Positions 1 through 59,731 of a stretch of 61,881 bases of DNA are shown in pieces; the stretch's first letter is position 1, and every line of letters starts with the position of its first letter. The position numbers and the translations under genes are program-made. This stretch comes from Phycisphaerae bacterium (lineage in GTDB: Bacteria > Planctomycetota > Phycisphaerae > Sedimentisphaerales > UBA12454), in assembly GCA_026386845.1 (NCBI GenBank), contig JAPLMW010000039.1, forward strand, positions 1 to 61,881, read 5' to 3'. The notes under the pieces were generated by a model. That model searched no databases. It was not told the origin of the DNA and was given only the letters and a program-made list of their open reading frames with translations.

Positions 1-647
1 TGCTGGCTGTCGGCAAAAAGCCGATGATTTACTATCCCATTGAGAAACTTATTTCAGCGGGAATAGAGGAAATTCTCATCGTAACCGGCATCGACCATAT
101 GGGCGATGTAGTAAACCTGCTTGGTTCGGGGAAAAATTTTTCCTGCCGTTTTACTTACAAAGTCCAGGACCAGGCCGGCGGTATCGCCCAGGCGCTTGCC
201 CTTGCGGAAGATTTCGCAAAGAACAGCGGACTTGTAGCAATTCTCGGCGATAACATTTTCAAGGCTTCTTTAAAACCTTATCTGCAAAAATTTTCAAATC
301 AGAAAAAAGGAGCAAGAGTCCTGCTCAAACAGGTTGAAAACCCGCAGCGATTCGGCGTCGCTGAAATTGCGGACAATAAAGTAACTTCCATTATCGAAAA
401 ACCAAAAAATCCGAAAACAAATTATGCCGTAACAGGCATATATTTTTATGATAACACCGTCTTTGACATAATCAAAATATTAAAGCCTTCCGGCCGAGGC
501 GAACTTGAAATCACCGATGTCAATAACGCTTATATCAGCCGAAACCAGCTCGAATATGATATTCTTGCCGGCTGGTGGACGGACGCCGGAACATTTGAAT
601 CGCTTAACACTGCAAATGAATTAGTTATTAAGGAGCCTGTCGAATGA
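1..647 (+). CDS. rmlA: glucose-1-phosphate thymidylyltransferase-like sugar nucleotidyltransferase (5' end outside window)
   Basis: The frame is open from the window edge (LAVGKKPM...). Nucleotidyltransferase motifs GGIAQAL, ILGDNIF, EKPKNPK..YAVTGIYFY and GELEITD are present. It is the first gene of an rmlA-C-D-B cluster. Confidence 0.8.
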   Translation, partial: LAVGKKPMIYYPIEKLISAGIEEILIVTGIDHMGDVVNLLGSGKNFSCRFTYKVQDQAGGIAQALALAEDFAKNSGLVAILGDNIFKASLKPYLQKFSNQKKGARVLLKQVENPQRFGVAEIADNKVTSIIEKPKNPKTNYAVTGIYFYDNTVFDIIKILKPSGRGELEITDVNNAYISRNQLEYDILAGWWTDAGTFESLNTANELVIKEPVE

Positions 648-955
648 CAAGTCCCGTTAGACCTCTTTGGTTTTATACTTATGTTTTAATATGCGAAAAA
701 ACAGGGACACTCTATACTGGTTGTACCAAAAATTTAAGGCAGCGAATGGAACAACACACTAAAGGTTTGGTTTATTACACAAAATACAGATTACCGGTTA
801 AGTTAATTTATTCTGAGGCTTGTTTGAACAAAGATGATGCTTTTCGCAGGGAAAGATATTTAAAAACAGGAATGGGCAAAAGATATCTTAAAAATAGGTT
901 AAAAAGATGTCGGACGACCATAAATGCCTTATCTAAAGGAGGTCTAACGGGATGA
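644..955 (+). CDS. GIY-YIG nuclease family protein (COG2827/YhbQ-like, 103 aa)
   Basis: N-terminal FYTYVL..GTLYTG (GIY...YIG) followed by RRERYLK. The ATG overlaps the rmlA stop (ATGA 644-647) and the TGA overlaps the rmlC start (ATGA 952-955). Confidence 0.85.
   Translation: MTSPVRPLWFYTYVLICEKTGTLYTGCTKNLRQRMEQHTKGLVYYTKYRLPVKLIYSEACLNKDDAFRRERYLKTGMGKRYLKNRLKRCRTTINALSKGGLTG
644..955 (+). mobile_element. GIY-YIG cassette with 13-bp terminal inverted repeats and ATGA direct repeats
   Basis: CCCGTTAGACCTC (653-665) and GAGGTCTAACGGG (939-951) are perfect inverted repeats. ATGA occurs at both borders. Removing 648-955 restores an rmlA/rmlC ATGA overlap. Confidence 0.55.
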
Positions 956-13186: not shown

Positions 13187-14386
13187 ATGAAAGAAGAAAA
13201 AGCAGAACAGTTTCAGGCGAAAGGATTAAATGTTTTTGAAAAATATCTTACGGTATGGGTTATATTGTGCATTATAGGCGGGATTGTCCTGGGCAAGGTT
13301 GCTCCGCAATTTGCAAAGTCGCTGGATGGGATGTCTATTTATGTCGGCGGCGCTCCGGTTGTTTCAATCCCAATCGCGATATGCCTTTTCTTTATGATGT
13401 ATCCGATTATGGTCAAGATTGACTTTGCCGAAGTCTTGCAGGCCGGCAAAAGCATAAAACCTGTCGGTCTGACGTTATTTGTTAACTGGGCGATTAAACC
13501 TTTTACAATGTATGCCATTGCCGTATTTTTCCTCGGCACATTATTTCGCGGCTTTATTGGCCCCGATGCGATGGATTTGGTCAAAATGCCGTTTGGTATG
13601 GATTTGCCGGTTGGTGCTCAGTATGGTGTTGGTACTATTGTTATGGACAATGGTATCAAAATGCTGCAAATTCCGCTGTGGAGAAGTTATTTAGCCGGCT
13701 GCATACTGCTGGGCATCGCGCCTTGTACCGCAATGGTTTTAGTTTGGGGCTATCTTGCCAAAGGCAACGACGGCCACACCCTTATTATGGTTGCTATTAA
13801 TTCTCTGTCAATGCTGTTGCTGTATGGGCCTTTAGGTGGATTTTTATTAGGTGTAGGCAGACTGCCTGTCCCCTGGCAGGCTCTGGCATTGTCGATAGTG
13901 ATTTATGTCGCTCTGCCGCTTTTGGCGGGATTTATTTCAAGAAAATGGATTATCGCCCATAAAGGCCCCGTGTGGTTCGAGGAAAAATTCCTCCACGTGC
14001 TTACGCCGATTACGATTATCGCACTGCTGGTAACTCTTGTACTTCTGTTCTCCTTCAAGGGCGAAACCATTATTTCAAATCCGCTGACCATTCTCTGGAT
14101 TGCGGTGCCTCTCTTTATACAGACAATGCTTATTTTTACGATAGGCTATTGGCTGTCAAAACCGTTGAAATTGTCGTATGCCGATGCCGCTCCATCAGCA
14201 ATGATAGGCGCTTCGAACCATTTCGAAGTCGCAATCGCAACAGCAACAATGCTTTTTGGCTTATCTTCCGGTGCAGCACTTGCGACAGTTGTCGGCGTTC
14301 TTATTGAAGTGCCGGTAATGCTGATGCTTGTAAAAATATGCTTAAAAACACAAGGTTGGTTTGCTGTAAAGAAGCAGGAAGTATAA
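13187..14386 (+). CDS. acr3: ACR3 family arsenite efflux transporter
   Basis: Ten TM helices and the conserved [10 protein letters not shown] motif. ATG 13187 was chosen as the start. Confidence 0.9.
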
Positions 14387-14435
14387 TAATCGGTTAAAAA
14401 ATAGAATGAATAAAGGCCTAACTTAAGGGGGATGA

Positions 14436-14542
14436 ATCCCGTTAGACCTCTCTGGCTTACAAAGGTGTTCAAAGATATGGAAAGACATGTAAACTTTATA
14501 TTGTATAAATAACTTAAAAATAGGTTAGTGAGGTCTAACGGG
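14436..14542 (+). mobile_element. MITE-like deletion derivative of the GIY-YIG cassette (family 1)
   Basis: It has the same 13-bp TIRs (14438-14450 and 14530-14542). It shares the MNPVRPLW opening and the 15-nt CTTAAAAATAGGTTA (14513-14527, matching 887-901). It is flanked by ATGAA at 14432 and 14543. Confidence 0.65.
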
Positions 14543-14776
14543 ATGAAAAAATTACAAATACTCGGAACAGGCTGCCCCAAGTGCAAAAAACTTGCCGAAT
14601 TTGCTGAAACCGCAGCAAAAGAACTTGGTATTGAGTATGAAATTGAGAAAGTTACAAAGATTAATGATATAATGAAGTTCGGCGTTATGGTAACGCCCGC
14701 TCTTGTCGTTGATGGAAAAGTAAAAGTCGCCGGCAAAGTGCCTTCAATTGAAGAATTGAAGAATATGCTGAAATGA
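14543..14776 (+). CDS. thioredoxin-fold redox-active disulfide protein 2 family (77 aa)
   Basis: MKKLQILGTGCPKCKKL carries the CxxC motif. ATG 14543 is preferred over GTG 14528, which lies inside the repeat. Confidence 0.85.
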   Translation: MKKLQILGTGCPKCKKLAEFAETAAKELGIEYEIEKVTKINDIMKFGVMVTPALVVDGKVKVAGKVPSIEELKNMLK

Positions 14777-14805
14777 TGATGAACTCTTAAAAAGAGAAAA
14801 TTTTT

Positions 14806-15818: not shown

Positions 15819-16516
15819 TGCAGCAATTATTTGAAAATCTGACTCGCGCCGTCGAAGGCACGGCTTTAATCGCCCTTGCCGCTTCTTTTATCTGGGGCAT
15901 TTTGAGCATTTTGCTCAGTCCCTGTCATCTGGCAAGTATCCCGCTTATTGTCGGCTTTATCGACGAACAGGGAAAAATTTCTACAAAAAGAGCTTTCTGG
16001 ATTTCGTTTCTTTTCGCGGCGGGAATACTTATAACCATCGGTCTTGTCGGCGTCATTACCGCTGCTGCCGGAAGAATAATGGGCGATGTCGGCAAATGGG
16101 GCAATTATTTCGTCGCTGTGATTTTCTTTCTTGTCGGCCTTCATCTGCTTGATGTAATCCCTATGCCGTTTTCAGGGCCGGGCTCTGTCGGTATGAAACA
16201 AAAAGGTCTGTTTGCCGCCTTTTTACTTGGTCTGGTCTTCGGCATTGCCATCGGCCCCTGCACTTTCGCTTATATGGCTCCGATGCTGGCCGTTACATTC
16301 AAAGTCGCTTCAAGTAATATCACTTACGGTATCTTGCTTTTGGTTGCCTATGGCATCGGCCATTGTTCAGTAATTGTCCTTGCAGGCACATTTACCGAAC
16401 TGGTCGAGCATTATTTGCACTGGAACGAAAAATCAAAGGGGGCGGTAATCCTCAAAAAAATCTGCGGCGTTCTTGTCCTTGCAGGCGGGCTTTATATGAT
16501 TTATACTGCCCCCTGA
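15818..16516 (+). CDS. ccdA: CcdA family cytochrome c biogenesis / thiol-disulfide transporter
   Basis: LLSPCHLASIPL and IGPCTFAYMAP motifs with six TM helices. Confidence 0.8.
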   Translation: MQQLFENLTRAVEGTALIALAASFIWGILSILLSPCHLASIPLIVGFIDEQGKISTKRAFWISFLFAAGILITIGLVGVITAAAGRIMGDVGKWGNYFVAVIFFLVGLHLLDVIPMPFSGPGSVGMKQKGLFAAFLLGLVFGIAIGPCTFAYMAPMLAVTFKVASSNITYGILLLVAYGIGHCSVIVLAGTFTELVEHYLHWNEKSKGAVILKKICGVLVLAGGLYMIYTAP

Positions 16517-16642
16517 TTTCTCTGATTTCTTAATTATTCGATTATATAACTCCTTGCTTTAATAACTTAAATTTCGTTATTTATGGAATGGTTAAATTAA
16601 ATTCGTTTTATATCTCGTTTTCCTCTGTGTCTCTGTGGTGAA
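16516..16642 (+). repeat. ~127-nt intergenic repeat (ATTTCTCTGA...CGTTTTATATCTC...TTCCTCTGTGTCTCTGTGGTGAA)
   Basis: Homologous along its full length to 23031-23195 and 23208-23337. It ends 6 nt before the MFS start codon. Confidence 0.75.
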
Positions 16643-16648
16643 AAACAA

Positions 16649-17815
16649 ATGGAAAATAATCGTTCATCGGCAATGAGGTTTATTTTGCTGCTGGGAGTCG
16701 TCAGTCTCCTTGCGGATGTAACTTATGAATCGGCACGAAGCCTGGCGGGGCCATATCTTGCTATCCTCGGCGCAAGCGGCGCCGTCGTCGGCATAACGGC
16801 TGGTCTTGGCGAACTGCTCGGCTACGGCCTGCGGTTCTTTTCCGGTCTGCTGAGCGACAAAACCCGGCGGTACTGGCTGATTACCATCATCGGTTATGTG
16901 GTAAATCTGCTGGCGGTTCCCCTGCTGGCGTTGACCCATCACTGGCCGATGGCGGTCGCTTTAATGATAACCGAGAGAATCGGCAAATCCATTCGCACTC
17001 CCGCCCGCGATGTAATGCTCTCTCACGCAACCGCTTCTGTCGGCAGAGGCTGGGGCTTTGCGGTTCACGAGGCTATGGACCAGATTGGCGCAATGACCGG
17101 CCCGGTTATTGTTATGATTGTTCTTGCGATTAGCGGTTCATACCGTTATGCCTTTGCGATTCTGGCAATACCGGCAATTCTGGCAATTATCGTTCTCTTA
17201 ATCGCCCGATTTAATTATCCGCATCCGCAAAAACTTGAAACCAAACAGGCCGAAATCGGCGATGGCAAATTGCCGACGGCATTCTGGATGTATCTGGGAG
17301 CTATCGGACTTGTCGCGGCTGGTTTCGCCGATTATCCGCTGATTGCGTTTCATATTAAACAGAATAATATTTTCGCGGACAAATGGATCCCCCTGCTTTA
17401 TGCCATCGCAATGGGCGTTGACGGCCTTGCCGCTCTGTTGTTCGGCAAATGGTACGATAAAAAGAAACTGCTTTCGCTGGCGACAGCTATAGCGATTTCG
17501 TCTCTCTTTGCGATTTTCGCGTTCTCGCTTTCGCCGATAGCGATTGTTGTTGGAATCTTGCTCTGGTCCGTAGGGATGGGTGCTCAGGAATCTATTATAA
17601 GAGCCGCGGTAGCCGATTTTGTCCCAACGGCCAAACGCGGCACAGGCTACGGTATTTTCAATGCAGGCTATGGTATATGCTGGTTTTTAGGCAGTGCGCT
17701 GATGGGCGTCCTTTATGATTTTTCGCTTGTCTCGCTTATCGCTTTTTCCGTTGTTTCCCAAGCCGCTTCGCTGCCGCTGCTTATCGGCACGCAAAAACAC
17801 TTTGCCGGAAAATAA
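16649..17815 (+). CDS. MFS transporter
   Basis: 388 aa with about 12 hydrophobic helices and a typical MFS layout. Confidence 0.8.
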   Translation: MENNRSSAMRFILLLGVVSLLADVTYESARSLAGPYLAILGASGAVVGITAGLGELLGYGLRFFSGLLSDKTRRYWLITIIGYVVNLLAVPLLALTHHWPMAVALMITERIGKSIRTPARDVMLSHATASVGRGWGFAVHEAMDQIGAMTGPVIVMIVLAISGSYRYAFAILAIPAILAIIVLLIARFNYPHPQKLETKQAEIGDGKLPTAFWMYLGAIGLVAAGFADYPLIAFHIKQNNIFADKWIPLLYAIAMGVDGLAALLFGKWYDKKKLLSLATAIAISSLFAIFAFSLSPIAIVVGILLWSVGMGAQESIIRAAVADFVPTAKRGTGYGIFNAGYGICWFLGSALMGVLYDFSLVSLIAFSVVSQAASLPLLIGTQKHFAGK

Positions 17816-21562: not shown

Positions 21563-21642
21563 TTAGCCGTCGCCGGCACGGCGACGTGTCATTCCCGCGA
21601 AAGCGGGAATCCAGTATATTTAGCCGCCGGTTTTACCGGCGG
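21563..21642 (+). repeat. composite of TTAGCC-hairpin, GTCATT-hairpin-AATCCAG and TTAGCC-hairpin
   Basis: TTAGCCGTCGCCggcacGGCGACG, then GTCATTCCCGCGAAAGCGGGAATCCAG (21588-21614), then TTAGCCGCCGGTtttaACCGGCGG. Confidence 0.7.
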
Positions 21643-22582: not shown

Positions 22583-22599
22583 TGAGGAACTAATTTTAA

Positions 22600-22622
22600 T
22601 TCACCACAGAGGCACAGAGGAA
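22600..22622 (-). repeat. 23-nt motif TTCCTCTGTGCCTCTGTGGTGAA (inverted copy)
   Basis: Reverse complement of the 3' ends of the repeats at 16620-16642 and 23315-23337. Confidence 0.7.
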
Positions 22623-22655: not shown

Positions 22656-23030
22656 ATGAAAGATTATGATGAACTGTCCGGCAAGGTTATTGGTTGTGCC
22701 ATAGAAGTCCATCGTGCTCTTGGACCCGGCCTTTTGGAATCTGCCTATGAAAGATGTCTTTCTTTTGAATTATCGGCTAATAATATTCATCATTTAGTTC
22801 AAAAAGAATTGCCGGTAAAATATAAGAATATTGAACTTGACTGCAATTACAGAATTGATTTCCTTATTGAGGACAAATTAATCGTCGAATTAAAGTCTGT
22901 TGATGCAATTTTGCCGATTTATGAAGCTCAGATTTTAACGTATATGAAACTGGCCGGTGTTAGAACAGGCCTTTTAATAAATTTTAATGTTCGTCTTTTG
23001 AGAGACGGCATACAAAGATTCGTTTTATAA
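22656..23030 (+). CDS. GxxExxY family protein (PD-(D/E)XK nuclease-like fold)
   Basis: GPGLLESAYERCL matches the GxxExxY motif. Length is about 125 aa. Confidence 0.85.
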   Translation: MKDYDELSGKVIGCAIEVHRALGPGLLESAYERCLSFELSANNIHHLVQKELPVKYKNIELDCNYRIDFLIEDKLIVELKSVDAILPIYEAQILTYMKLAGVRTGLLINFNVRLLRDGIQRFVL

Positions 23031-23337
23031 ATTTCTCTGAGTTCTTAATTATACGCTGGTATAACTTCTGACTTTAACTAATGTGAGTCTCGTTTTTTTA
23101 TGAAATGGCTTTAAAAAATTCGTTTTATATCTCATTTTTCTCTGTGTCGGAGTTTACCCCGTGAGATGTCGCAGTTATCTCATCGGGGTGGTGAAAAATA
23201 TTTTCTAATTTCTCTGAGTTCTTAATTATACGCCGGCATAACTCCTGGCTTTAATTAATATAAGTCTCGTTTTATTATGAAATGGCTTAAAAAAAATTCG
23301 TTTTATATCTCATTTCCCTCTGTGTCTCTGTGGTGAA
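23031..23337 (+). repeat. two tandem copies of the ~130-nt repeat (23031-23195 and 23208-23337)
   Basis: Both copies align with 16516-16642. The first carries a 41-nt hairpin insert, CCCCGTGAGATG..ATCTCATCGGGG (23148-23188). Confidence 0.75.
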
Positions 23338-24028
23338 TAATATAAAAAAAATTCTCGTTGCGACAACAAATCCCGGCAAACTGAAAGAAATTTCAGAAAT
23401 GCTGGATTTCGATATTACCTGGTTAAGTCTCAAAGACTTTCCTGGCATCAAAGAAATCGAAGAGGACGGTAAAACCTTCGCTGAAAACGCTCGGAAAAAA
23501 GCTCTCGGCTACGCAAAACAAACAAATCTCTGGACGCTCGCCGATGATTCAGGTTTGGTTATCGATGCCCTCGGCGGCGCGCCCGGCGTAACAAGCGCAA
23601 GATTCAGTTTAGCCCCCACCCCTGTGGTGGGGGTTAGCCCCGCCAACACTTTGGCGGGGTCACAATCTAAAAATAGAACTCTCCTTGACCACAAGAATAT
23701 GGCCAAGGTTTTAACTCTGCTCAAAGATGTTCCCAAACAAAAAAGAACAGCCAGGTTTGTCTGCTGTTTATGTCTTGCCTGCCCTGAGCCTGTCGAAGGG
23801 GCAAGTCCCCAAAAAGTTTTGATTGAAACAGAAGGAAAACTCCAGGGTATTATCGCTGAAAATCCTGCCGGCAGCAATGGTTTTGGTTATGACCCGATTT
23901 TCTTTGTCCCGCAGCTTAAAAAAACCGTCGCGCAGCTCCAATCTGCTGAAAAAAACAATATTTCGCATCGCGGCCAGGCCATAAAAAAACTCAAACCACT
24001 TCTTCAAAAACTGCTTGAAACAAATTAA
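23330..24028 (+). CDS. rdgB: RdgB/HAM1 family non-canonical purine NTP pyrophosphatase with in-frame repeat insertions
   Basis: ATTNPGKLKE, TARFVC, FGYDPIF and SHRG motifs. The GTG start at 23330 is uncertain. Confidence 0.85.
   Translation: MVNNIKKILVATTNPGKLKEISEMLDFDITWLSLKDFPGIKEIEEDGKTFAENARKKALGYAKQTNLWTLADDSGLVIDALGGAPGVTSARFSLAPTPVVGVSPANTLAGSQSKNRTLLDHKNMAKVLTLLKDVPKQKRTARFVCCLCLACPEPVEGASPQKVLIETEGKLQGIIAENPAGSNGFGYDPIFFVPQLKKTVAQLQSAEKNNISHRGQAIKKLKPLLQKLLETN
23609..23659 (+). repeat. two tandem TTAGCC-hairpin units in frame within rdgB (17 codons)
   Basis: TTAGCCCCCACCcctgtGGTGGGGG followed by TTAGCCCCGCCAAcactTTGGCGGGG. The second unit is near-identical to the intergenic copy at 33028-33053. 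Confidence 0.75.
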
Positions 24029-26567: not shown

Positions 26568-27148
26568 TTGGAAAAAAGCAGCTGCAGCAGCAGAAGAAAA
26601 ATAGTAAAAGAAAAAACAACTGAAGAATAATAGCAAAAAAAGCAGAAGAAGAAAAAATCTTTGAATCTCCCGCAAGCCGATAACTAAAAATCCTTAGAAA
26701 AATAAATAAAAAAAACGAGCAGTCGCGCCCGGTGAAGAAACGCTAACTGCTCGCAGGAGGAGGAAGAAGAAGATTTCAGTTTTATATATTCACTTTTCTA
26801 TCTATGCTCCTTATCGGCAAAATGTTCAAATTTTCATTAAAGTTTACGAATAAATCAGCCATAAAATCAATACATAATACTTTTTTAAGAAAAATGACTG
26901 TTAAAACAGGGAATTTAAGACTGGACAAACATTTTTAACAATTGTATCGTATTATATTAAAAGAAGTTATGACAAGAGCTAAAAGCAAGCATTCCGGTAA
27001 CATTTGTCTGGAATAATAGCCGAAAAAGTTTAATATATAACAAAAAAGCTGTGAAAAAAGGGGATTGAAGATATAAGATATCCAACTGTAGCCACAAAGA
27101 CACGAAGAAGTAAGGATGTAAAGAAATAGGGAAGCAAAGAAGATTTTT

Positions 27149-27478
27149 ATGAGCCAAGATAAAGAAACAAAAAAAATTGAACCTAGTTCAATAGAAATCG
27201 TCGAACCAGTCGGCAAAAGAGTCCTCATCCGTAAAGATGAAGATAAAAAAATAACCCGCGGCGGTATCAAACTGCCGGATAATATAGAAATACCCACCAT
27301 CACCGGCAGAATAGTCGCAGTCTCCGCTGAAGTAGAAACTATGCCGGAGATGCCATTGAAAAAATACGACAAAGTCCTGTTTAACCCCAAAGGGGCAATA
27401 CCAGTAGATTTCGAAGGCGATAATCGTTTGTTTGTCGTTGAAGTCGAAAACATAGTGGCGGTGTTTAGGAAAGCGTAG
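27149..27478 (+). CDS. co-chaperonin GroES (Cpn10) family protein
   Basis: VEPVGKRVLIRK..RGGIKLPD..GRIVAVS pattern. No groEL lies downstream. Confidence 0.7.
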   Translation: MSQDKETKKIEPSSIEIVEPVGKRVLIRKDEDKKITRGGIKLPDNIEIPTITGRIVAVSAEVETMPEMPLKKYDKVLFNPKGAIPVDFEGDNRLFVVEVENIVAVFRKA

Positions 27479-32998: not shown

Positions 32999-33053
32999 CC
33001 CGCCGTGAAACGGCGGGCTAAATATAACCCCGCCAAAGTATTGGCGGGGCTAA
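32999..33053 (-). repeat. two tandem TTAGCC-hairpin units
   Basis: On the minus strand: TTAGCCCCGCCAATACTTTGGCGGGG, then TTAGCCCGCCGTTTCACGGCGGG. The TAG of the first unit is the parA stop codon (33050-33052). Confidence 0.7.
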
Positions 33054-33853
33054 CCGGTATTGCCGATGGTTTTGCCGTTTAGGTGCCGGGCAATTAAACG
33101 GTAGTCTTCTGCGCCGTGGCAGGAGGGCTCATATTCGAAAATTGTTTTGCCGTAGCTGGGGGCTTCGGCGAGTTTGATATTTCTTCGCACAAAGGTCGGT
33201 ATGATTTGCGCGTTGCTCCAGGGACAATCGGAATCACGGGCGCTATCGAGAAACTTGTTGATATCGCTCTTGATTTCTTCCGACAGAGACGTTCTGCTGT
33301 CAAACATACATAACAATACGCCGCTTACCTTAAGAGAGGGATTAATTCTCCTGCTGACGAGCGTAATTGTCTGGAGCAGTTTTCCCAGACCCTGGAGGGC
33401 GAGAAAGTGCGGCTGAAGCGGGATAATGACTTCCTGAGCCGCCGCGAGGGCATTTAGCGTTAAAAGGCCGAGCGAAGGAGGACAATCTATCAGCAGATAA
33501 TCGAAATTCTGCTTTGTTTTCGCTATGGCTTCGCGGAAGATTATTTCCCTGCCGACGACGCTGACCAGCTCGCTTTCGGCGCCGACGAGATGGATATTTG
33601 CGCCGAGGAGAAAAAGATTCGGCCTTGCTTCGATAAGCGCATCGTCAAACTGAGATGCACCTGTGAGAACTTTATATGTTCCGGCTTCGACTTTGTCGGG
33701 TTCGATTCCGAGATGTATGGTAAGATGTGCCTGCGGGTCGAAATCGGCGGCGACGACTTTTGCGCCGTCCTGCGCCAGAGCGGCGGCGATATTGACAACC
33801 GAAGTCGTCTTGCCCACGCCCCCTTTCTGGTTGAGCATTACTATTTTACGCAT
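33050..33853 (-). CDS. parA: ParA/Soj family ATPase
   Basis: Deviant Walker A NQKGGVGKTT. No parB gene is adjacent. Confidence 0.9.
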   Translation of the reverse strand: MRKIVMLNQKGGVGKTTSVVNIAAALAQDGAKVVAADFDPQAHLTIHLGIEPDKVEAGTYKVLTGASQFDDALIEARPNLFLLGANIHLVGAESELVSVVGREIIFREAIAKTKQNFDYLLIDCPPSLGLLTLNALAAAQEVIIPLQPHFLALQGLGKLLQTITLVSRRINPSLKVSGVLLCMFDSRTSLSEEIKSDINKFLDSARDSDCPWSNAQIIPTFVRRNIKLAEAPSYGKTIFEYEPSCHGAEDYRLIARHLNGKTIGNTG

Positions 33854-38052: not shown

Positions 38053-38163
38053 AGTGTCCCCTTTTTAATCTGGATTATCTTCTACGACAATGCTATTATT
38101 AAAATATAAAAATCCAAATTGTCAATAACTCATTAAAATAAGGATTTTAAAGAGAGCCGATGA

Positions 38164-38273
38164 ATCCCGCACCTTCAGATATTCAAATAATAATTTTGAA
38201 GGGTCGCAAGAGTAACCGGCTGAAGATACAATAATATGAAACATATATCAAAAGAATGTAAAGAAGGTGCGGG
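38164..38273 (+). mobile_element. MITE-like element, family 2 (second copy)
   Basis: TIRs CCCGCACCTTC (38166-38176) and GAAGGTGCGGG (38263-38273). Perfect ATGAAT direct repeats at 38160-38165 and 38274-38279. Confidence 0.65.
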
Positions 38274-39185
38274 ATGAATAAAATTCATCCCAATAGATTT
38301 TATCTCGAAGACTATAGGAAGAAACATCACAGATATTCGCGGGACGGTTTCTTCGGGAATCTGAAACGCATCCGCACCTGGTCGTCCCTGATACAGTTTA
38401 TACTGAGGGCGACAGGTCTTGAGCGGCGAGGCCTTGCCAACGCGATGAATATCAGAGTCAACCAGACAGTCGCAGAGTTTGATAATCTGCCGAGTGGTTT
38501 TGAGAACAGCCGCATACTCTTCATTTCTGACTTTCATATCGAACTTATGGCCGGCCTCGTCGATAAAATAATCGAGCTGATAAAAAATCTCGAATATGAC
38601 TACTGTTTTCTCGGCGGCGATTACAGTACCTTCGACAAATTCGATATGGACAAGACAAAACAGGGAATGAAAAAAATTGCGGAACATCTCAAAACCAATC
38701 GGACTTACGGAGTAATCGGCAATCATGATTATTACGAAACGGCCGTCTTTCTTCAAAGTCTCGGCGTAACAATGCTCATAAATGAAAATACAGTGATTGA
38801 ACGCGATGGCGCAGCGATTTATCTTGCAGGCGTCGATGACGGCTATATTTTTGATTCAGCCGATATAGGCCGGGCATCTGCCGGCATTCCGGCAGGAGCT
38901 TTTAAAATTCTCCTGTCGCACAGCCCGCAGATTTACAGGCAGGCCCAGAAGGCGGGTTTTAACTTTTTTATGGCCGGCCATACACACGGCGGCCAGATTT
39001 GTCTGCCGGGCGGAATACCATTATTCAAGTCCGCTAAGGCACCGGGAAAAATCGCAAAAGGCCTGTGGCAATATAAAACCATGACCGGTTTTACGTCCAC
39101 CGGCGCCGGCTGCTGTAATGCCGCGGCAAGGTTCTTTTGCCCGCCGGAAATCGCTGTTTTGACCCTCAAAATGAAAAAATCATAG
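38274..39185 (+). CDS. metallophosphoesterase
   Basis: SDFH, GGDY, GNHDYYE and AGHTHGGQ motifs. Confidence 0.85.
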   Translation: MNKIHPNRFYLEDYRKKHHRYSRDGFFGNLKRIRTWSSLIQFILRATGLERRGLANAMNIRVNQTVAEFDNLPSGFENSRILFISDFHIELMAGLVDKIIELIKNLEYDYCFLGGDYSTFDKFDMDKTKQGMKKIAEHLKTNRTYGVIGNHDYYETAVFLQSLGVTMLINENTVIERDGAAIYLAGVDDGYIFDSADIGRASAGIPAGAFKILLSHSPQIYRQAQKAGFNFFMAGHTHGGQICLPGGIPLFKSAKAPGKIAKGLWQYKTMTGFTSTGAGCCNAAARFFCPPEIAVLTLKMKKS

Positions 39186-46420: not shown

Positions 46421-46520
46421 AGAAGAAATGATAACAAAAGAATTAGAAAAGTCGATAGTTGATAGTTGCTGGTCGCTGGTGAAAGGAAGCAAGGAAATAA
46501 GGAGGTAAGGAAGCAAAGAA

Positions 46521-46557
46521 ATAAGGAAAAGAAAGGCCGAGGCAAACAGACTCGGCC
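46521..46557 (-). terminator. candidate intrinsic terminator
   Basis: GGCCGAG (46535-46541) pairs with CTCGGCC (46551-46557). On the minus strand it is followed by TTTCTTTTCC. Confidence 0.5.
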
Positions 46558-50663: not shown

Positions 50664-51085
50664 GTCATTTCGAGCGGAGGCCTCGAAGAGGCCGAAGCCG
50701 AGAAATCTATTAAAAAACGTTCTTTACGAATATTATTCATACCAGCCATCGCTTAAGTCTTTCCAGTCGGGATTCATCGAGTCAATAATCGCAACCTTTT
50801 TCTCCCGTCTCCATTTTTTGATTTGTTTTTCCCGACTAATGGCTGAAATCGGGTCTGATACCCTTTCTACATAAAGTAATCGGTCAATATTGTATTTATT
50901 TGTGAAACCCGGCATTAGATGATTTTTATGCTGATAAACCCTTTTTTTAATGTCATTAGTCATTCCGATATATAAAGTGCCGGTTTTGCTTGACATTATG
51001 TAAACATAATAGTTTTTCATAATCAAATTTTTTAATAGATTTCTCCACTCCGCTCCCCCTAAGGGGTCGCTTCGGTCGAAATGAC
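50664..51085 (-). mobile_element. GIY-YIG gene flanked by 54-58-nt terminal inverted repeats
   Basis: Left arm: GTCATTTCGA...GAGAAATCTATTAAAAAA (50664-50717). Right arm, inverted: TTTTTTAATAGATTTCTC...TCGAAATGAC (51028-51085). Confidence 0.55.
50733..51020 (-). CDS. GIY-YIG nuclease family protein (COG2827-like)
   Basis: YYVYIM..GTLYIGMT followed by SREKQIKKW. ATG 51020 is preferred over TTG 51026. Confidence 0.85.
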   Translation of the reverse strand: MKNYYVYIMSSKTGTLYIGMTNDIKKRVYQHKNHLMPGFTNKYNIDRLLYVERVSDPISAISREKQIKKWRREKKVAIIDSMNPDWKDLSDGWYE

Positions 51086-52801: not shown

Positions 52802-52918
52802 TTTTATATCCTTAAAATATCATAGTTTCGTTTTTCATCTTTTTTAAGGAAGTAAAGAGATAAAGAGGTAAGGAAGTAAGGAAAAACAATTGAATGCCTT
52901 CCTTGCTTCCTTGATTCC

Positions 52919-54214
52919 TTATTTCCTTATTTCCTTTATACTATTCTGTGCAGCTTTGACTGTTTTTTCAATATCCTTTTTCGAATGTGCTGCGGAAATA
53001 AACATCGCCTCGAACGGACTGGGGGCAAGATATATGCCGTTTTTGAGCATTTGGGCGAAAAACGCCGCAAAAAGCCTTGCATCCGCTGATTTTGCATCGG
53101 CGAAGTCGAAAACAGGCTTTTCAGTGAAAAAACAGCTTAAAAGCGAACCGATACGGTTTATAGTCAATGGAATTGACGCCTGTTTGCCGGCATCGAGCAA
53201 ACCTGTATGAAGCATTTGTGATTTTTCTTCAAGCCGATTATAAAAATTTTTATTTTTCAATAATTTAAGCGTTGCAAGAGCCGCGGCAGTAGCCAGTGGA
53301 TTGCCGCTCAGGGTGCCGGCCTGATAAACGCCCCCTGCCGGCGCCAGCAGGTTCATAATCTCCGCCCTGCCGCCGACGGCTGCGCACGGAAGACCGCCGC
53401 CGATAATCTTTCCCAGGCAGGTCAAATCGGGTTTAACTTTAAATAACTTTTGAGCTCCGCCGAAACAAAGTCTGAAACCGGTTATCACCTCATCAAAAAT
53501 CAAAAGAGATTTATTGTCGCTGCAAAGTTTTCTGAGAGTTTTAAGATAGCCCGGCTTCGGCAAAACAACTCCCATATTCGCGGCAACCGGTTCGATTATG
53601 CACGCGGCAATTTTATTTTTGTATTTCTCAAAAACCTTTGCCGTCGAATCAATATCATTGTAATCAGCGACAATCGTAAGGGCACAAAGAGATTTCGGCA
53701 CACCGGGGCATAAAGGTTTTGAATATTGAGCTGAACCTGAGCCGCTGGAAACGAGCATCGAATCGCTGTGGCCGTGATAACAGCCGGACATTTTTAAAAT
53801 ATAATCTTTGCCCGTAAAAGCTCTGGCAAGTCGCACGGCGGTCATTACCGCCTCTGTGCCGCTGCTGACAAGACGAACTTTCTCAATCGAATCGAAAGCA
53901 TTACAAATAATTTCCGCAACTTCGGTTTCCGCAGCAGTGGGGGCGCCGAAAGACGTTCCCTTCTGTGCCGCTTTTTTTACCGCGGCGATTACCTGCGGAT
54001 GACAGTGGCCGAGTATTAAAGCACCCCATGAACATACATAGTCAATATACTCGTTGCCGTCGATGTCGTAAATTTTCGAGCCGCTGCCTTTTGCAATAAA
54101 AACAGGACTGCCGCCGACGTTTTTAAACGCCCTTACAGGCGAATTAACCCCGCCGGGGATAAAACGAGCGGCTTTCGTAAACTGCTTTTTGGATTTCGTA
54201 AATTCCATATTCAA
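52919..54214 (-). CDS. hemL: glutamate-1-semialdehyde 2,1-aminomutase
   Basis: FIPGGVNSPVRAF plus a class-III aminotransferase body. Confidence 0.95.
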   Translation of the reverse strand: MNMEFTKSKKQFTKAARFIPGGVNSPVRAFKNVGGSPVFIAKGSGSKIYDIDGNEYIDYVCSWGALILGHCHPQVIAAVKKAAQKGTSFGAPTAAETEVAEIICNAFDSIEKVRLVSSGTEAVMTAVRLARAFTGKDYILKMSGCYHGHSDSMLVSSGSGSAQYSKPLCPGVPKSLCALTIVADYNDIDSTAKVFEKYKNKIAACIIEPVAANMGVVLPKPGYLKTLRKLCSDNKSLLIFDEVITGFRLCFGGAQKLFKVKPDLTCLGKIIGGGLPCAAVGGRAEIMNLLAPAGGVYQAGTLSGNPLATAAALATLKLLKNKNFYNRLEEKSQMLHTGLLDAGKQASIPLTINRIGSLLSCFFTEKPVFDFADAKSADARLFAAFFAQMLKNGIYLAPSPFEAMFISAAHSKKDIEKTVKAAQNSIKEIRK

Positions 54215-58982: not shown

Positions 58983-59588
58983 CTATTCCAGCTCGCATCT
59001 GCCGAGGATTGCATCGGTTAGGACTGCGCCGCCGGCGTATTCAATCTGGCTTCCGCCGGGAAGACCCCTTGCAAGACGGGTAACCTTTATGCCCAAAGGC
59101 TTTATCAGCGAACCGATATACAAAGCTGTGCCGTCGCCTTCAACGGTTGGGTTTGTCGCCATTACAACTTCAGTAATTTTTTCGCTGCGAAGACGGCTCA
59201 ATAAATGTTCGATTGTCAAATCTTCCGGCTCGATATTTTCCAGCGGTGCGATATGCCCGCCGAGAACGTGATAGACCCATTTGCAAAGTCCGGTCTTTTC
59301 CAAAGCGATAAGGTCTTGGAACTGCTCGACAACGCAAATAATACTTTTATCGCGCCTGTCGTCTGTGCAAATCGAGCACAAATCTCCCTCTGAAAGATTG
59401 TGGCATTGTTTGCATTGACGAATACTGCTTTTTAATTTCATTATCGCATCGGCAAGAGCAATGGCTTCGTTTTTGTCAGCTTTCAATATATGAAAAGCAA
59501 GCCTCTCAGCCGTCTTGGGTCCTATCCCCGGCAGCTTTGCCAGTTCTTCTATCAGTTTATTCAAACTTTGTGTATATGCCGAATTCAT
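58983..59588 (-). CDS. recR: recombination protein RecR
   Basis: HhH motif, a Cys4 finger (CKQCHNLSEGDLCSIC) and a Toprim domain. ATG 59588 is preferred over TTG 59603. Confidence 0.95.
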   Translation of the reverse strand: MNSAYTQSLNKLIEELAKLPGIGPKTAERLAFHILKADKNEAIALADAIMKLKSSIRQCKQCHNLSEGDLCSICTDDRRDKSIICVVEQFQDLIALEKTGLCKWVYHVLGGHIAPLENIEPEDLTIEHLLSRLRSEKITEVVMATNPTVEGDGTALYIGSLIKPLGIKVTRLARGLPGGSQIEYAGGAVLTDAILGRCELE

Positions 59589-59680
59589 CCCGCACCTATT
59601 CAATATTCAATTACATCCGCCCCGCAGCACGTTGCAGCGGGGTTCTATTCAACTTTATATATAATAAATAGGTGCGGTGG
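59589..59680 (-). mobile_element. MITE-like element (variant TIR CCGCACCTAT/ATAGGTGCGG) at the recR start codon
   Basis: The minus strand reads ATGAA-CCACCGCACCTAT...ATAGGTGCGGG-ATGAAT(recR). The ATGAA direct repeats are at 59685-59681 and 59588-59584. Confidence 0.55.
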
Positions 59681-59685
59681 TTCAT

Positions 59686-59731
59686 CCCACACCTTCTTTC
59701 TATTCTTATTTTATCGCTTTTTCAAAATAAT
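59686..59731 (-). mobile_element. 3' half of a family-2 MITE fused to the end of the HNH-AP2 gene
   Basis: The minus strand reads ATTATTTTGAAAAAGCGATAAAATAAGAATAGAAAGAAGGTGTGGG. This aligns with the last ~46 nt of the elements at 2324-2431 and 38164-38273. Confidence 0.5.

Follow-up and report, generated by a model that had tools for sequence, protein, structure and literature searches.

A 115-nucleotide (nt) element that covers the start codon of a thioredoxin-fold gene (trx) was analyzed in a 61,881-nt stretch of DNA from a Phycisphaerae bacterium (contig JAPLMW010000039.1), referred to here, at its full length, as the window. The element, at positions 14432 to 14546, is probably best explained as a whole as a deletion derivative of a cassette that occupies start codons and encodes a GIY-YIG nuclease, with movement led by the nuclease and the host gene rescued by a Shine-Dalgarno (SD) sequence carried by the element. 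A full-length cassette with matching arms is present in the same window at 644 to 955, and the two elements are designated family 1 (F1). F1 is apparently an undescribed and widespread family of start-codon cassettes with abundant derivatives that encode no protein.

Structure of the short element

Exact matches to CCCGTTAGACCTC were found at four sites in the window, 653 to 665 (+), 939 to 951 (-), 14438 to 14450 (+), and 14530 to 14542 (-), forming two inverted pairs (653-665/939-951 and 14438-14450/14530-14542). No further site with two or fewer mismatches was present in the 61.9-kb window, and none of 100 dinucleotide shuffles of the window reached four matches (shuffle mean, 0.56). The 13-nt arms that a preliminary description had assigned to both elements are exact in each. 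In the short element they extend to 15 nt, with a 13-nt core identical to the arms of the 644-955 cassette. The left arm, ATCCCGTTAGACCTC, occupies 14436 to 14450 (+; core, 14438 to 14450) and pairs in the predicted fold with the right arm, GAGGTCTAACGGGAT, at 14530 to 14544 (+), which carries an SD-like GAGG 9 nt before the trx ATG and overlaps the AT of that codon.

The second arm pair encloses 79 nt and lies between a gene for an ACR3-type arsenite carrier, ending at 14386, and trx, with ATGAA on both sides of the element. Earlier given as 107 bp, the element is indeed small, but that figure was loose: it measures 105 nt from arm to arm, 111 nt as a deletable unit, and 115 nt from ATG to ATGA. 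Removal of 14436 to 14546 yields AAGGGGGATGAAAAAATTACAA, as had been claimed. The sole open reading frame (ORF) of the 115-nt element is a remnant without a domain, MNPVRPLWLTKVFKDMERHVNFILYK, comprising 26 codons and a TAA stop (14432 to 14512, +), as first described. Its first codons are the left arm, and it aligns to GIY-YIG codons 1 to approximately 31. The opening peptides reported for the two elements, MNPVRPLW in the short form and MTSPVRPLW at 644-955, are both present. A 3' subterminal remnant, CTTAAAAATAGGTTAGT, follows at 14513 to 14529 (+) and represents the LKNRL codons of the full-length gene, with the deletion junction in an A(T/A)CTTAAA microhomology.

Directly upstream of the short element, at 14412 to 14431 (+), the sequence reads ATGAAT AAAGGCCTAAC TTAAG GGGG, which, apart from a 5-nt insertion, equals the right arm AAAGGTCTAACGGG and is probably the relic, a solo right end, of an earlier F1 element. 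A second right arm directly upstream, in such a tandem layout, was identified at 6 of 78 elements elsewhere, among the matches listed. The AAGGGGG preceding the ATG at 14432 had been regarded as the original ribosome binding site (RBS), with that ATG as the original start. The motif (14425 to 14431) does lie directly 5' of the ATG, but as the 3' part of the relic it probably stems from the older element and now provides an SD-like sequence for ATG 14432.

The host gene, trx (14543 to 14776, +), encodes a 77-amino-acid (aa) Thioredoxin_3/small redox-active disulfide protein 2 (Pfam PF13192, E = 2.9e-28) and lies downstream of genes for an ArsM-like methyltransferase and ACR3, names that were taken from database sources. 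One database copy of the protein (P0125) has been called from a GTG inside the right arm (14528 to 14776), giving a product of 82 aa that is five codons too long and starts MRSNGMKK; this long start is an annotation artifact due to the element. An Rfam search of 14200 to 14800 at a permissive E value returned only sub-threshold noise. An integron attC site was also considered, as GTTAGAC and GTCTAAC occur in the arms, but was rejected: their order is reversed relative to the R'' (RYYYAAC) on the 5' side and the R' (GTTRRRY) on the 3' side of the imperfect attC hairpin, which belongs to a cassette array beside intI. Neither array nor integrase context was seen, the elements being single and on start codons.

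Derivation from the GIY-YIG cassette

With the arms removed, the 79-nt interior of the short element was compared with seven full-length interiors using summed local scores. It scored 172, against 125 ± 9 for dinucleotide shuffles, and none of 500 shuffles reached that value. In an alignment to a DNA profile built from nine full-length family members, nt 1 to 72 of the short element (weakly to 88) matched profile positions 1 to 73 (to 92), and nt 78 to 115 matched positions 237 to 276. The two profile blocks overlap in A(T/A)CTTAAA, a string that the nuclease gene has twice, at the NNLK codons and at the YLKNRL codons, and the deletion junction falls at the shared CTTAAA. The simplest history is that approximately 145 nt, or some 48 codons, were lost from between two short direct repeats and that small frame-breaking indels arose afterward. 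The proposal that 14432-14546 is a deletion derivative of the GIY-YIG cassette family, resembling a MITE (miniature inverted-repeat transposable element), is thus supported by the profile alignment and by interior similarity above that of shuffles.

The 15-nt subterminal block CTTAAAAATAGGTTA, previously noted at 14513 to 14527 and 887 to 901, was confirmed at both sites and consists of the deletion junction plus the LKNRL codons. It lies 33 nt further from the arm in 644-955 than in the short element because the former has an 11-codon insertion; typical 91-aa relatives match the short spacing. A placement of GGAAAGACATGTAAA on the RERYLK codons was not favored by the DNA profile. As the remnant contains frameshifts, DNA-level tests were used for the window copy, for which a protein-profile search of the interior gave a nonsignificant 0.8 bits. 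Short copies elsewhere are parallel deletion derivatives with differing breakpoints, some of which keep a GIY-YIG peptide. The copy at locus L101 is a plain deletion with another breakpoint, reading MNPVRPPWFYTY joined to RYLKTGMGKRYLRNRIQEGLTG, while those at L018, L022, and L048 scored 10 to 29 bits on the protein profile (28.9 for L018), against a shuffle 99th percentile of 2.9.

The preliminary description had named chance similarity, limited to the 13-bp ends, as a reading that would undo its proposal. Chance resemblance of two loci sharing a 13-nt palindromic pair has in its favor only the shortness of the shared arms and can be regarded as refuted, since neither the four arm matches nor the interior similarity was reached in shuffles and a generic search for the architecture, described below, returned only members of F1 and of a sister family, F2. 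The full-length copy with identical arms lies 13.5 kb from the short element, and a second lineage also has both forms; mobilization of the short copies in trans, as had been suggested, is plausible.

The full-length cassette and its nuclease

The full-length cassette (644 to 955, +; arms at 653 to 665 and 939 to 951) carries an ORF for a 103-aa single-domain GIY-YIG protein (PF01541, E = 6e-13) and lies between rmlA (24 to 647) and rmlC (952 to 1476), with ATGA overlaps at either end. In related loci whose RmlC proteins are 84 to 87% identical (L149 and L145 to L148), rmlA and rmlC overlap directly, reading ..AATGACAAAAAAAATCGCAG, i.e., ..AATGACAA followed immediately by AAAAAATCGC. The filled site in the window and in L154 reads ..AATGACAA, then GTCCCG...CGGGATGA, then AAAAAATCGC. 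By comparison with these empty sites, the cassette is an insertion between rmlA and rmlC, and the inserted DNA, counting the A run, is GTCCCGTTAGACC...GGTCTAACGGGATGA, plus or minus one A. The former ATG ACA of rmlC now opens the nuclease ORF (MTSPVRP), and rmlC begins at an ATG borne by the element, giving MKKI in place of MTKKI, so that the chain of stop/start overlaps from rmlA through the nuclease gene to rmlC is kept. As far as this single clean empty/filled pair can show, the right-hand ATGA would be part of the moving unit and not a duplication.

A search for homologs of the nuclease identified 744 at E ≤ 1e-5, mostly 91 aa in length (65 of the best 120), whose named sources were Phycisphaerae, Sedimentisphaerales, Planctomycetes, and Omnitrophota bins. 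Among the best 120 of the 744 homologs, a PV[RK]P-type N terminus (consensus, MNPVRP) was present in 113 and a GLTG end in 98. These tails are the arms themselves: the arms CCCGTTAGACC and GGTCTAACGGG, 13 to 15 bp long, also encode in the full-length form the N terminus MNPVRP (ATG AAT CCC GTT AGA CC.) and the C terminus GGLTG* (GGA GGT CTA ACG GGA TGA), and gene and arms therefore constitute one unit across the family. Residue 7, just after MNPVRP, is hypervariable and almost random in the same best 120. In an AlphaFold2 model the protein has one folded core, residues 10 to 89 (pLDDT, ~90), while both arm-encoded tails are of low confidence. The combination of conserved tails with a low-confidence tail model points to arms constrained as DNA rather than as protein.

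Invariant alignment columns were Y, Y, G, R, H, E, and N, including the catalytic Tyr, Tyr, Arg, His, Glu, and Asn. A sequence search of the PDB ranked the UPF0213 protein 1zg2 first (E = 7e-10), followed by 1ywl and then SLX1 (7cq2); Foldseek also placed 1zg2 at the top, followed by Slx1 entries, well ahead of UvrC and I-TevI. From these searches and the predicted fold, the F1 nuclease can be assigned to the UPF0213/Slx1-like type of GIY-YIG protein; it is the product, of about 91 aa, of the sole gene in the cassette. Pfam identified only PF01541 and a borderline, overlapping T5orf172 match in the 103-aa protein, and neither Pfam nor AlphaFold2 gave a second (DNA-binding) domain. NCBIfam returned only a sub-threshold match to a group I intron endonuclease. 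No transposase gene was found beside full-length copies at the loci examined.

In some full-length nucleases (P0047, P0076, and P0107), MNPV(R/K)P is immediately followed by about 20 inserted codons that keep the frame (compare L136, 2066 to 2120). The insert holds another right-arm-like TTTCTAACGGG and looks like a translated, nested mini element.

Distribution and location on start codons

To identify relatives, one genome per species (596 Gb) was scanned for exact matches to the 15-mer ATCCCGTTAGACCTC, of which approximately 1,000 would be expected by chance by our own arithmetic. The matches listed comprised 118 stretches, and the counts of units in this section are among these matches. 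A single unpaired 15-mer was present in 47 stretches; the other 71, together with the window, gave at least 85 units bounded by both arms. Fourteen units were 45 to 72 nt long, approximately 55 were 92 to 133 nt (mode, 98 to 106 nt), and eight were full length. Units were found in Planctomycetota (n = 27), Omnitrophota (n = 26), Saccharibacteria (n = 11), Desulfobacterota (n = 6), Elusimicrobiota (n = 3), Nitrospirota (n = 2), Aminicenantes (n = 2), and Gammaproteobacteria (n = 1), with seven unclassified. The host genes are unrelated and span at least eight phyla, and two Omnitrophota bins each held at least six units. In a scan of viral contigs, one of 14 15-mer matches was a real paired element, and there was no sign of a phage vehicle for F1.

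The layout of the units is fixed: a purine-rich RBS region, ATGA(A/G)T, the left arm, the interior, the right arm, and ATGA(A/G). The location on a start codon, first noted for trx, proved to be general, as 73 of 76 nonredundant units have a right-flank ATG that begins an ORF of 60 aa or more, compared with 28% of control ATGAR sites taken from the same loci. Upstream of the left ATG, only the ordinary SD-like purine bias was seen. Using a generic search of 937 kb for ATGNNN plus 13 nt, followed by the inverted 13 nt plus ATG, 54 matches were obtained, of which 53 were F1 and one was F2; therefore, chance does not produce this architecture. Of eight double changes in the arms, seven were compensatory, most clearly that in L136 (CCAGTTAAACC/GGTTTAACTGG). 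Tandem and nested units are common (e.g., L021, L081, L085, L056, and L048), consistent with an element that regenerates its target at the right end.

A number of these features would also be expected of an ordinary MITE with terminal inverted repeats (TIRs) and a 5-bp target duplication (ATGAA), moved by an unrelated DDE-type transposase encoded elsewhere, with the GIY-YIG ORF a mere passenger. The TIRs are perfect, the elements are small and reach many copies per genome, as in the two Omnitrophota bins, and the flanking 5-mers co-vary between copies as direct repeats, with ATGAG/ATGAG found 14 times and ATGGA, ATGTA, and GTAAA pairs also present. However, a passenger ORF does not account for arms that double as the opening codons of the nuclease gene in 113 of its best 120 homologs and as its closing codons in 98, and the full-length copies are unaccompanied by a transposase gene. 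Such a MITE also predicts insertion in both orientations, whereas all full-length ORFs are co-oriented with the host gene and GGAGG occurs in the gene-proximal arm of 51 of 78 units, against CCTCC in the distal arm of two. The rmlA/rmlC pair needs no duplication; if its right ATGA came with the element, co-varying flanks would imply that a target is picked by its identity to the element flank. The MITE explanation is therefore considered unlikely, and a cassette moved with the aid of its own nuclease is preferred.

Some variant forms were also identified. In Omnitrophota, mini forms of 45 to 72 nt (L014, L031, L036, L092, and others) consist of a tight arm hairpin joined to a further right arm by a linker of about 13 nt, and are in frame with a mini-ORF, e.g., MNPVRPFLTGFQRGGLTG. 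Collapsed arms forming only a hairpin, CCCGTTAGACC-TT-TCTAACGGG, also occur in this phylum. In L037, L074, and L075, from two Smithella bins and one Omnitrophota bin, the same arms are flanked on both sides by GTAAA or ATAAA and not by ATGAR.

Age and lateral spread

The same short element was found in the same place in three independently assembled relatives (L123, L124, and L126). Compared with these, the last 600 nt of the ACR3 gene are 81 to 87% identical and the trx gene is 88 to 92% identical, while the 45-nt spacer and the 111-nt element together differ at 0 or 1 of 156 nt. The nearly difference-free tract extends from 14343 to approximately 14553, and Fisher tests of the discordance gave P values of 9e-8 and 4e-11. 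The full-length cassette behaves similarly, being 97.4% identical to that of L154 over a sharp-edged tract from 641 to 965 (Fisher P = 2e-9) within flanks that are 81.6% (rmlA), 92.2% (rmlC), 85.9% (rmlD), and 84.9% (rmlB) identical. An internal control is provided by an F2 element between rmlD and rmlB, which is 83% identical to its L154 ortholog with many indels; as this element has diverged freely, inserts of this kind are not generally constrained. The presence of the element is also discordant with the trx gene tree: the trx genes of L125, which lacks the element, and L126, which has it, are both 92.3% identical to that of the window, whereas that of L123, which has it, is 87.6% identical.

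These comparisons argue for recent lateral arrival of both F1 elements at the same sites in lineages that had already diverged. The recent activity put forward in the preliminary description is thus borne out, although by other evidence, namely, near identity of element and spacer within diverged flanks. That account had held that the same sequence at orthologous loci, with no further copies, would speak against it; the sequence is indeed shared by orthologous loci, and a paralog of the exact subfamily was not found, but the discordance in age reverses what this means. Two F1 loci in one window that are much younger than their flanks would point to a system that is active in natural populations and experimentally approachable.

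Arrival at the same site in diverged lineages, with both elements much younger than their flanks and with presence or absence polymorphic among equally related lineages, is also what would be expected if the cassette spread only by site-specific homing, in which the empty allele is cut and repair copies the cassette, with no new loci colonized and the short form a decayed hitchhiker. At trx, the identical tract even reaches 89 nt into the left flank, as a co-conversion tract would. For the full-length copy, in contrast, the young tract extends no further than 3 nt on the left side and 14 nt on the right side, and the protein is without a DNA-binding domain, unlike I-TevI or the Seg proteins. 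Moreover, dozens of unrelated genes, in several phyla, have these same arms at their starts, and ectopic insertion must therefore occur. Homing as the sole mode of spread thus appears improbable, but it could be one of two modes by which a start-codon cassette of the kind proposed here is disseminated.

Expression of the host gene through the element

The RNA from 14420 to 14560 has a predicted folding energy of -40 kcal/mol (z = -5.3), with a 15-bp stem and eight further pairs, and the predicted stem hides the GAGG and the AU of the trx AUG. Among the matches listed, 35 of 69 short copies are in the frame that leads to the ATGA overlap, and 23 of 69 hold an uninterrupted mini-ORF (MNPVRP...GGLTG*), compared with 3.5 ± 1.7 expected. 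This excess of open mini-ORFs suggests a role for translation that starts at the upstream ATG and passes through the element.

A possible sequence of events is that the element captures the RBS and ATG of the host gene for its own ORF or remnant, while the host gene would receive a new SD sequence from the element and, in the case of rmlC, a new ATG as well. The arms would pair in the mRNA and bury the new SD sequence; ribosomes arriving from the upstream ATG would then open the stem and end at or near the gene ATG, allowing termination-reinitiation coupling at ATGA. In the available text of a published account, termination-reinitiation at ATGA overlaps is described as an established mechanism (PMC6728339).

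A very stable stem over the SD sequence and part of the AUG, the excess of mini-ORFs ending in ATGA, and the near invariance of element and spacer among lineages could instead mean that the host owns the element, as a vertically inherited and selected translational control, made up of an upstream ORF (uORF) and an SD-sequestering hairpin, that is only superficially cassette-like. We consider this very unlikely: the interior is homologous to a nuclease gene, other copies are plain in-frame deletions of that gene, and the same arms precede unrelated genes with no hint of shared regulation. The old F2 element in the rml operon evolves freely, and L125, with an equally similar trx gene, is without any element. 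A regulatory side effect is compatible with the preferred explanation of a mobile start-codon cassette and its deletion derivatives.

The F2 family and other repeats in the window

The sister family F2 contributes three short elements to the window. The first, ATGAAT CCCGCACCTTC ... GAAGGTGCGGG ATGA, lies at the rmlD stop and rmlB start (2320 to 2435, +); the second is on the start codon of a gene for a 303-aa protein (38160 to 38277, +); and the third, which is degenerate and has an extra solo right arm upstream, is at the start of a recR-like gene (201 aa; 59586 to 59696, -). With the two F1 elements, five start-codon elements are thus present in 62 kb. Among the F2 copies found in the window, none is full length with a nuclease gene. 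F1 and F2 have in common outer CCCG/CGGG sequences, ATGAAT/ATGAA flanks, and an SD-like right arm (AAGGTG in F2). In L150 to L153, whose Trx proteins are 90% identical to that of the window, an F2 element (ATGAAT CCCGCACCTTC ... GAAGGTGCGGG ATGAA; at 1392 to 1504 in L150) occupies the same trx start codon, and to judge from these loci this codon is a target that F1 and F2 have used independently.

A second single-domain GIY-YIG gene (50733 to 51026, -) encodes a protein of 95 to 97 aa that is 34% identical to the F1 protein and best matches UPF0213 1zg2. It is in an intergenic spacer, off start codons, and is surrounded by 25-nt inverted repeats (50693 to 51052), imperfect to approximately 65 nt, with GTCATTTCGA at the outer ends; this layout is nearer to the published arrangement of the Ssn nucleases compared below. 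The sequence at 21587 to 21614, TGTCATTCCCGCGAAAGCGGGAATCCAG, fits the consensus of the Neisseria NTS repeat, CGTCATTCCCGCGMAVGCGGGAATCYRG, except at the first position, and lies in a 120-nt spacer between two + strand genes, beside a GC-rich hairpin. The published SRM pattern had two matches in the window, compared with 0.14 in shuffles, of which only 21587-21614 is a canonical NTS.

Other repeats include an intergenic sequence of approximately 150 nt ending in TTCCTCTGTGTCTCTGTGGTGAA, present at 16513 to 16664, 23028 to 23148, and 23205 to 23359 and inverted at 22599 to 22622, the copies sharing 76 to 90% identity; one copy is directly upstream of an MFS-type gene at 16649. Three places, 27088 to 27150, 46475 to 46545, and 52846 to 52937, contain purine-rich tracts of 8-nt periodicity (AAGGAAGN-like), which are found in both orientations. 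A 29-nt GC-rich hairpin, GGTTAGCCCCGCCAACACTTTGGCGGGGT, is present at 23632 to 23660 and, inverted, at 33027 to 33055 (97% complementary) and may be a repeated terminator or a REP-like element.

Proposed movement and its significance

In the movement we envisage, the nuclease would bind the hairpin into which the paired arms fold in single-stranded DNA (ssDNA) and, by analogy with SsnA of Neisseria meningitidis at NTS hairpins, would cut a few nt beyond it, within the flanking ATGAR. Identity of 4 to 5 nt between the target and the element flank would guide the copying of the element into another ATGAR site, with the joining step using host functions. A full-length copy bearing the same arms, in this window 644-955, would act in trans on the short copies.

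Several points weigh against this reading. That the nuclease moves the element is inferred from their co-occurrence and shared ends. GIY-YIG enzymes hydrolyze DNA, and we know of no strand transfer by them; as hydrolases, they would need host functions for the insertion step. Co-varying flanks are as expected from a 5-bp target duplication, while the sole clean empty/filled pair fits a carried ATGA without duplication. For the short element, a clean empty site was not found, a metagenome scan for the predicted TTAAGGGGGATGAARAAATTRCAAAT giving no matches, and the only element-free trx relative, L125, has a different ACR3 3' end and is unusable for this purpose. A scan for a second copy of its exact subfamily returned only the orthologous contig. 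The mini-ORF of the window copy ends at 14512, 31 nt before the trx ATG and in the wrong frame for an ATGA overlap; the coupling argument is therefore weaker for this copy than for the 23 with an uninterrupted mini-ORF and applies only to the opening of the stem. The loci were gathered by an exact arm 15-mer, so that the conservation of one arm is biased by ascertainment, and nearly all sequences are from metagenome bins. Lastly, the near-exclusive location on start codons could partly reflect selective removal of insertions elsewhere.

If the preferred explanation is true, these elements live in the initiation codon, taking the RBS and start of the host gene and repaying with their own, a niche that, to our knowledge, no described mobile element occupies. 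Many genes in Planctomycetota, Omnitrophota, Saccharibacteria, and other phyla would then use an element-supplied RBS behind a hairpin leader, often with a short uORF, and gene callers will mis-start host genes that bear an element.

Comparison with known systems

F1 resembles MITEs and similar repeats (Correia/NEMIS, RUP, ERIC, and Rickettsia palindromic elements) in its length of about 100 nt, its TIRs, the lack of a transposase gene, its many copies, and its mRNA hairpin. Rickettsia palindromic elements are tolerated inside coding regions. F1 differs in that its autonomous partner encodes a GIY-YIG nuclease rather than a known transposase and in its location at the initiation codon, in fixed orientation and with a replacement SD sequence or ATG.

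With homing endonucleases such as T4 Seg proteins and I-TevI, F1 shares the GIY-YIG fold, sharp-edged presence or absence, and an element younger than its flanks. In I-TevI and the Seg proteins, however, the catalytic domain is joined to a DNA-binding domain for one cognate site, whereas F1 lacks such a domain and has inverted-repeat ends, dozens of unrelated targets, and many protein-less derivatives. Slx1 is a structure-specific nuclease that acts on branched DNA, has a RING domain, and needs Slx4; its activity on branched DNA would fit a hairpin or cruciform substrate for F1. The solved UPF0213/YhbQ proteins differ from F1 in having no assigned function or repeat context.

Elements of the IS200/IS605 family also have hairpin ends that are read in ssDNA, insert beside a short target, and have related protein-less repeats of the REP/BIME type. 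They use an HUH tyrosine transposase with covalent intermediates, their subterminal hairpins are unlike at the two ends, and we know of no start-codon preference among them. The parallel with IS200/IS605 "peel and paste" has also been drawn for the Ssn nucleases in the available text on these enzymes (PMC11893778).

The paper on Ssn, a group of ssDNA nucleases discovered only in 2025 (Chenal et al. 2025, PMC11893778), was the only relevant item recovered in full-text literature searches, in which no earlier description of start-codon GIY-YIG cassettes was found. According to its available text, N. meningitidis SsnA, a single-domain GIY-YIG protein of 94 aa, binds the NTS hairpin sequence specifically and only as ssDNA and cuts a few nt 5' of it; ssnA genes usually have their own repeats on either side, and the authors liken NTS-ssnA-NTS to an insertion sequence (PMC11893778). 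F1 agrees with this description in having a single-domain GIY-YIG protein of similar size (91 to 94 aa across the two systems), a gene bracketed by its own inverted repeat, and many protein-less repeats in the genome. The ends are also alike, as NTS starts CGTCATTCCCGCG, the complement of the F2 right end is TTCATCCCGCACC, and that of F1 is TTCATCCCGTTAG, and the collapsed Omnitrophota hairpins are NTS-like in form. In contrast, the F1 gene lies inside one split hairpin, with an arm on each side, whereas ssnA lies between two complete hairpins; the F1 arms belong to the reading frame; and the published SRM pattern matches no F1 or F2 end. F1 elements are also on start codons, co-oriented, and supply the SD sequence (in one case the ATG), features that the available text does not report for Ssn.

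Ssn/NTS is thus the closest known system, related to F1 in style. We put forward only tentatively, leaning slightly to the side of doubt, that F1 represents an undescribed class of mobile element in which a GIY-YIG nuclease is encoded inside the loop of its own hairpin, initiation sites are colonized, and harm is avoided by an exchange of RBS and ATG, with the NTS/dRS3 repeats and Ssn as collapsed or domesticated relatives. By this analogy, Ssn nucleases may be, or derive from, the mobility enzymes of hairpin elements, and a 91-aa protein with a 13-nt arm would provide a small in vitro system that may widen the specificities available among ssDNA-cutting tools.

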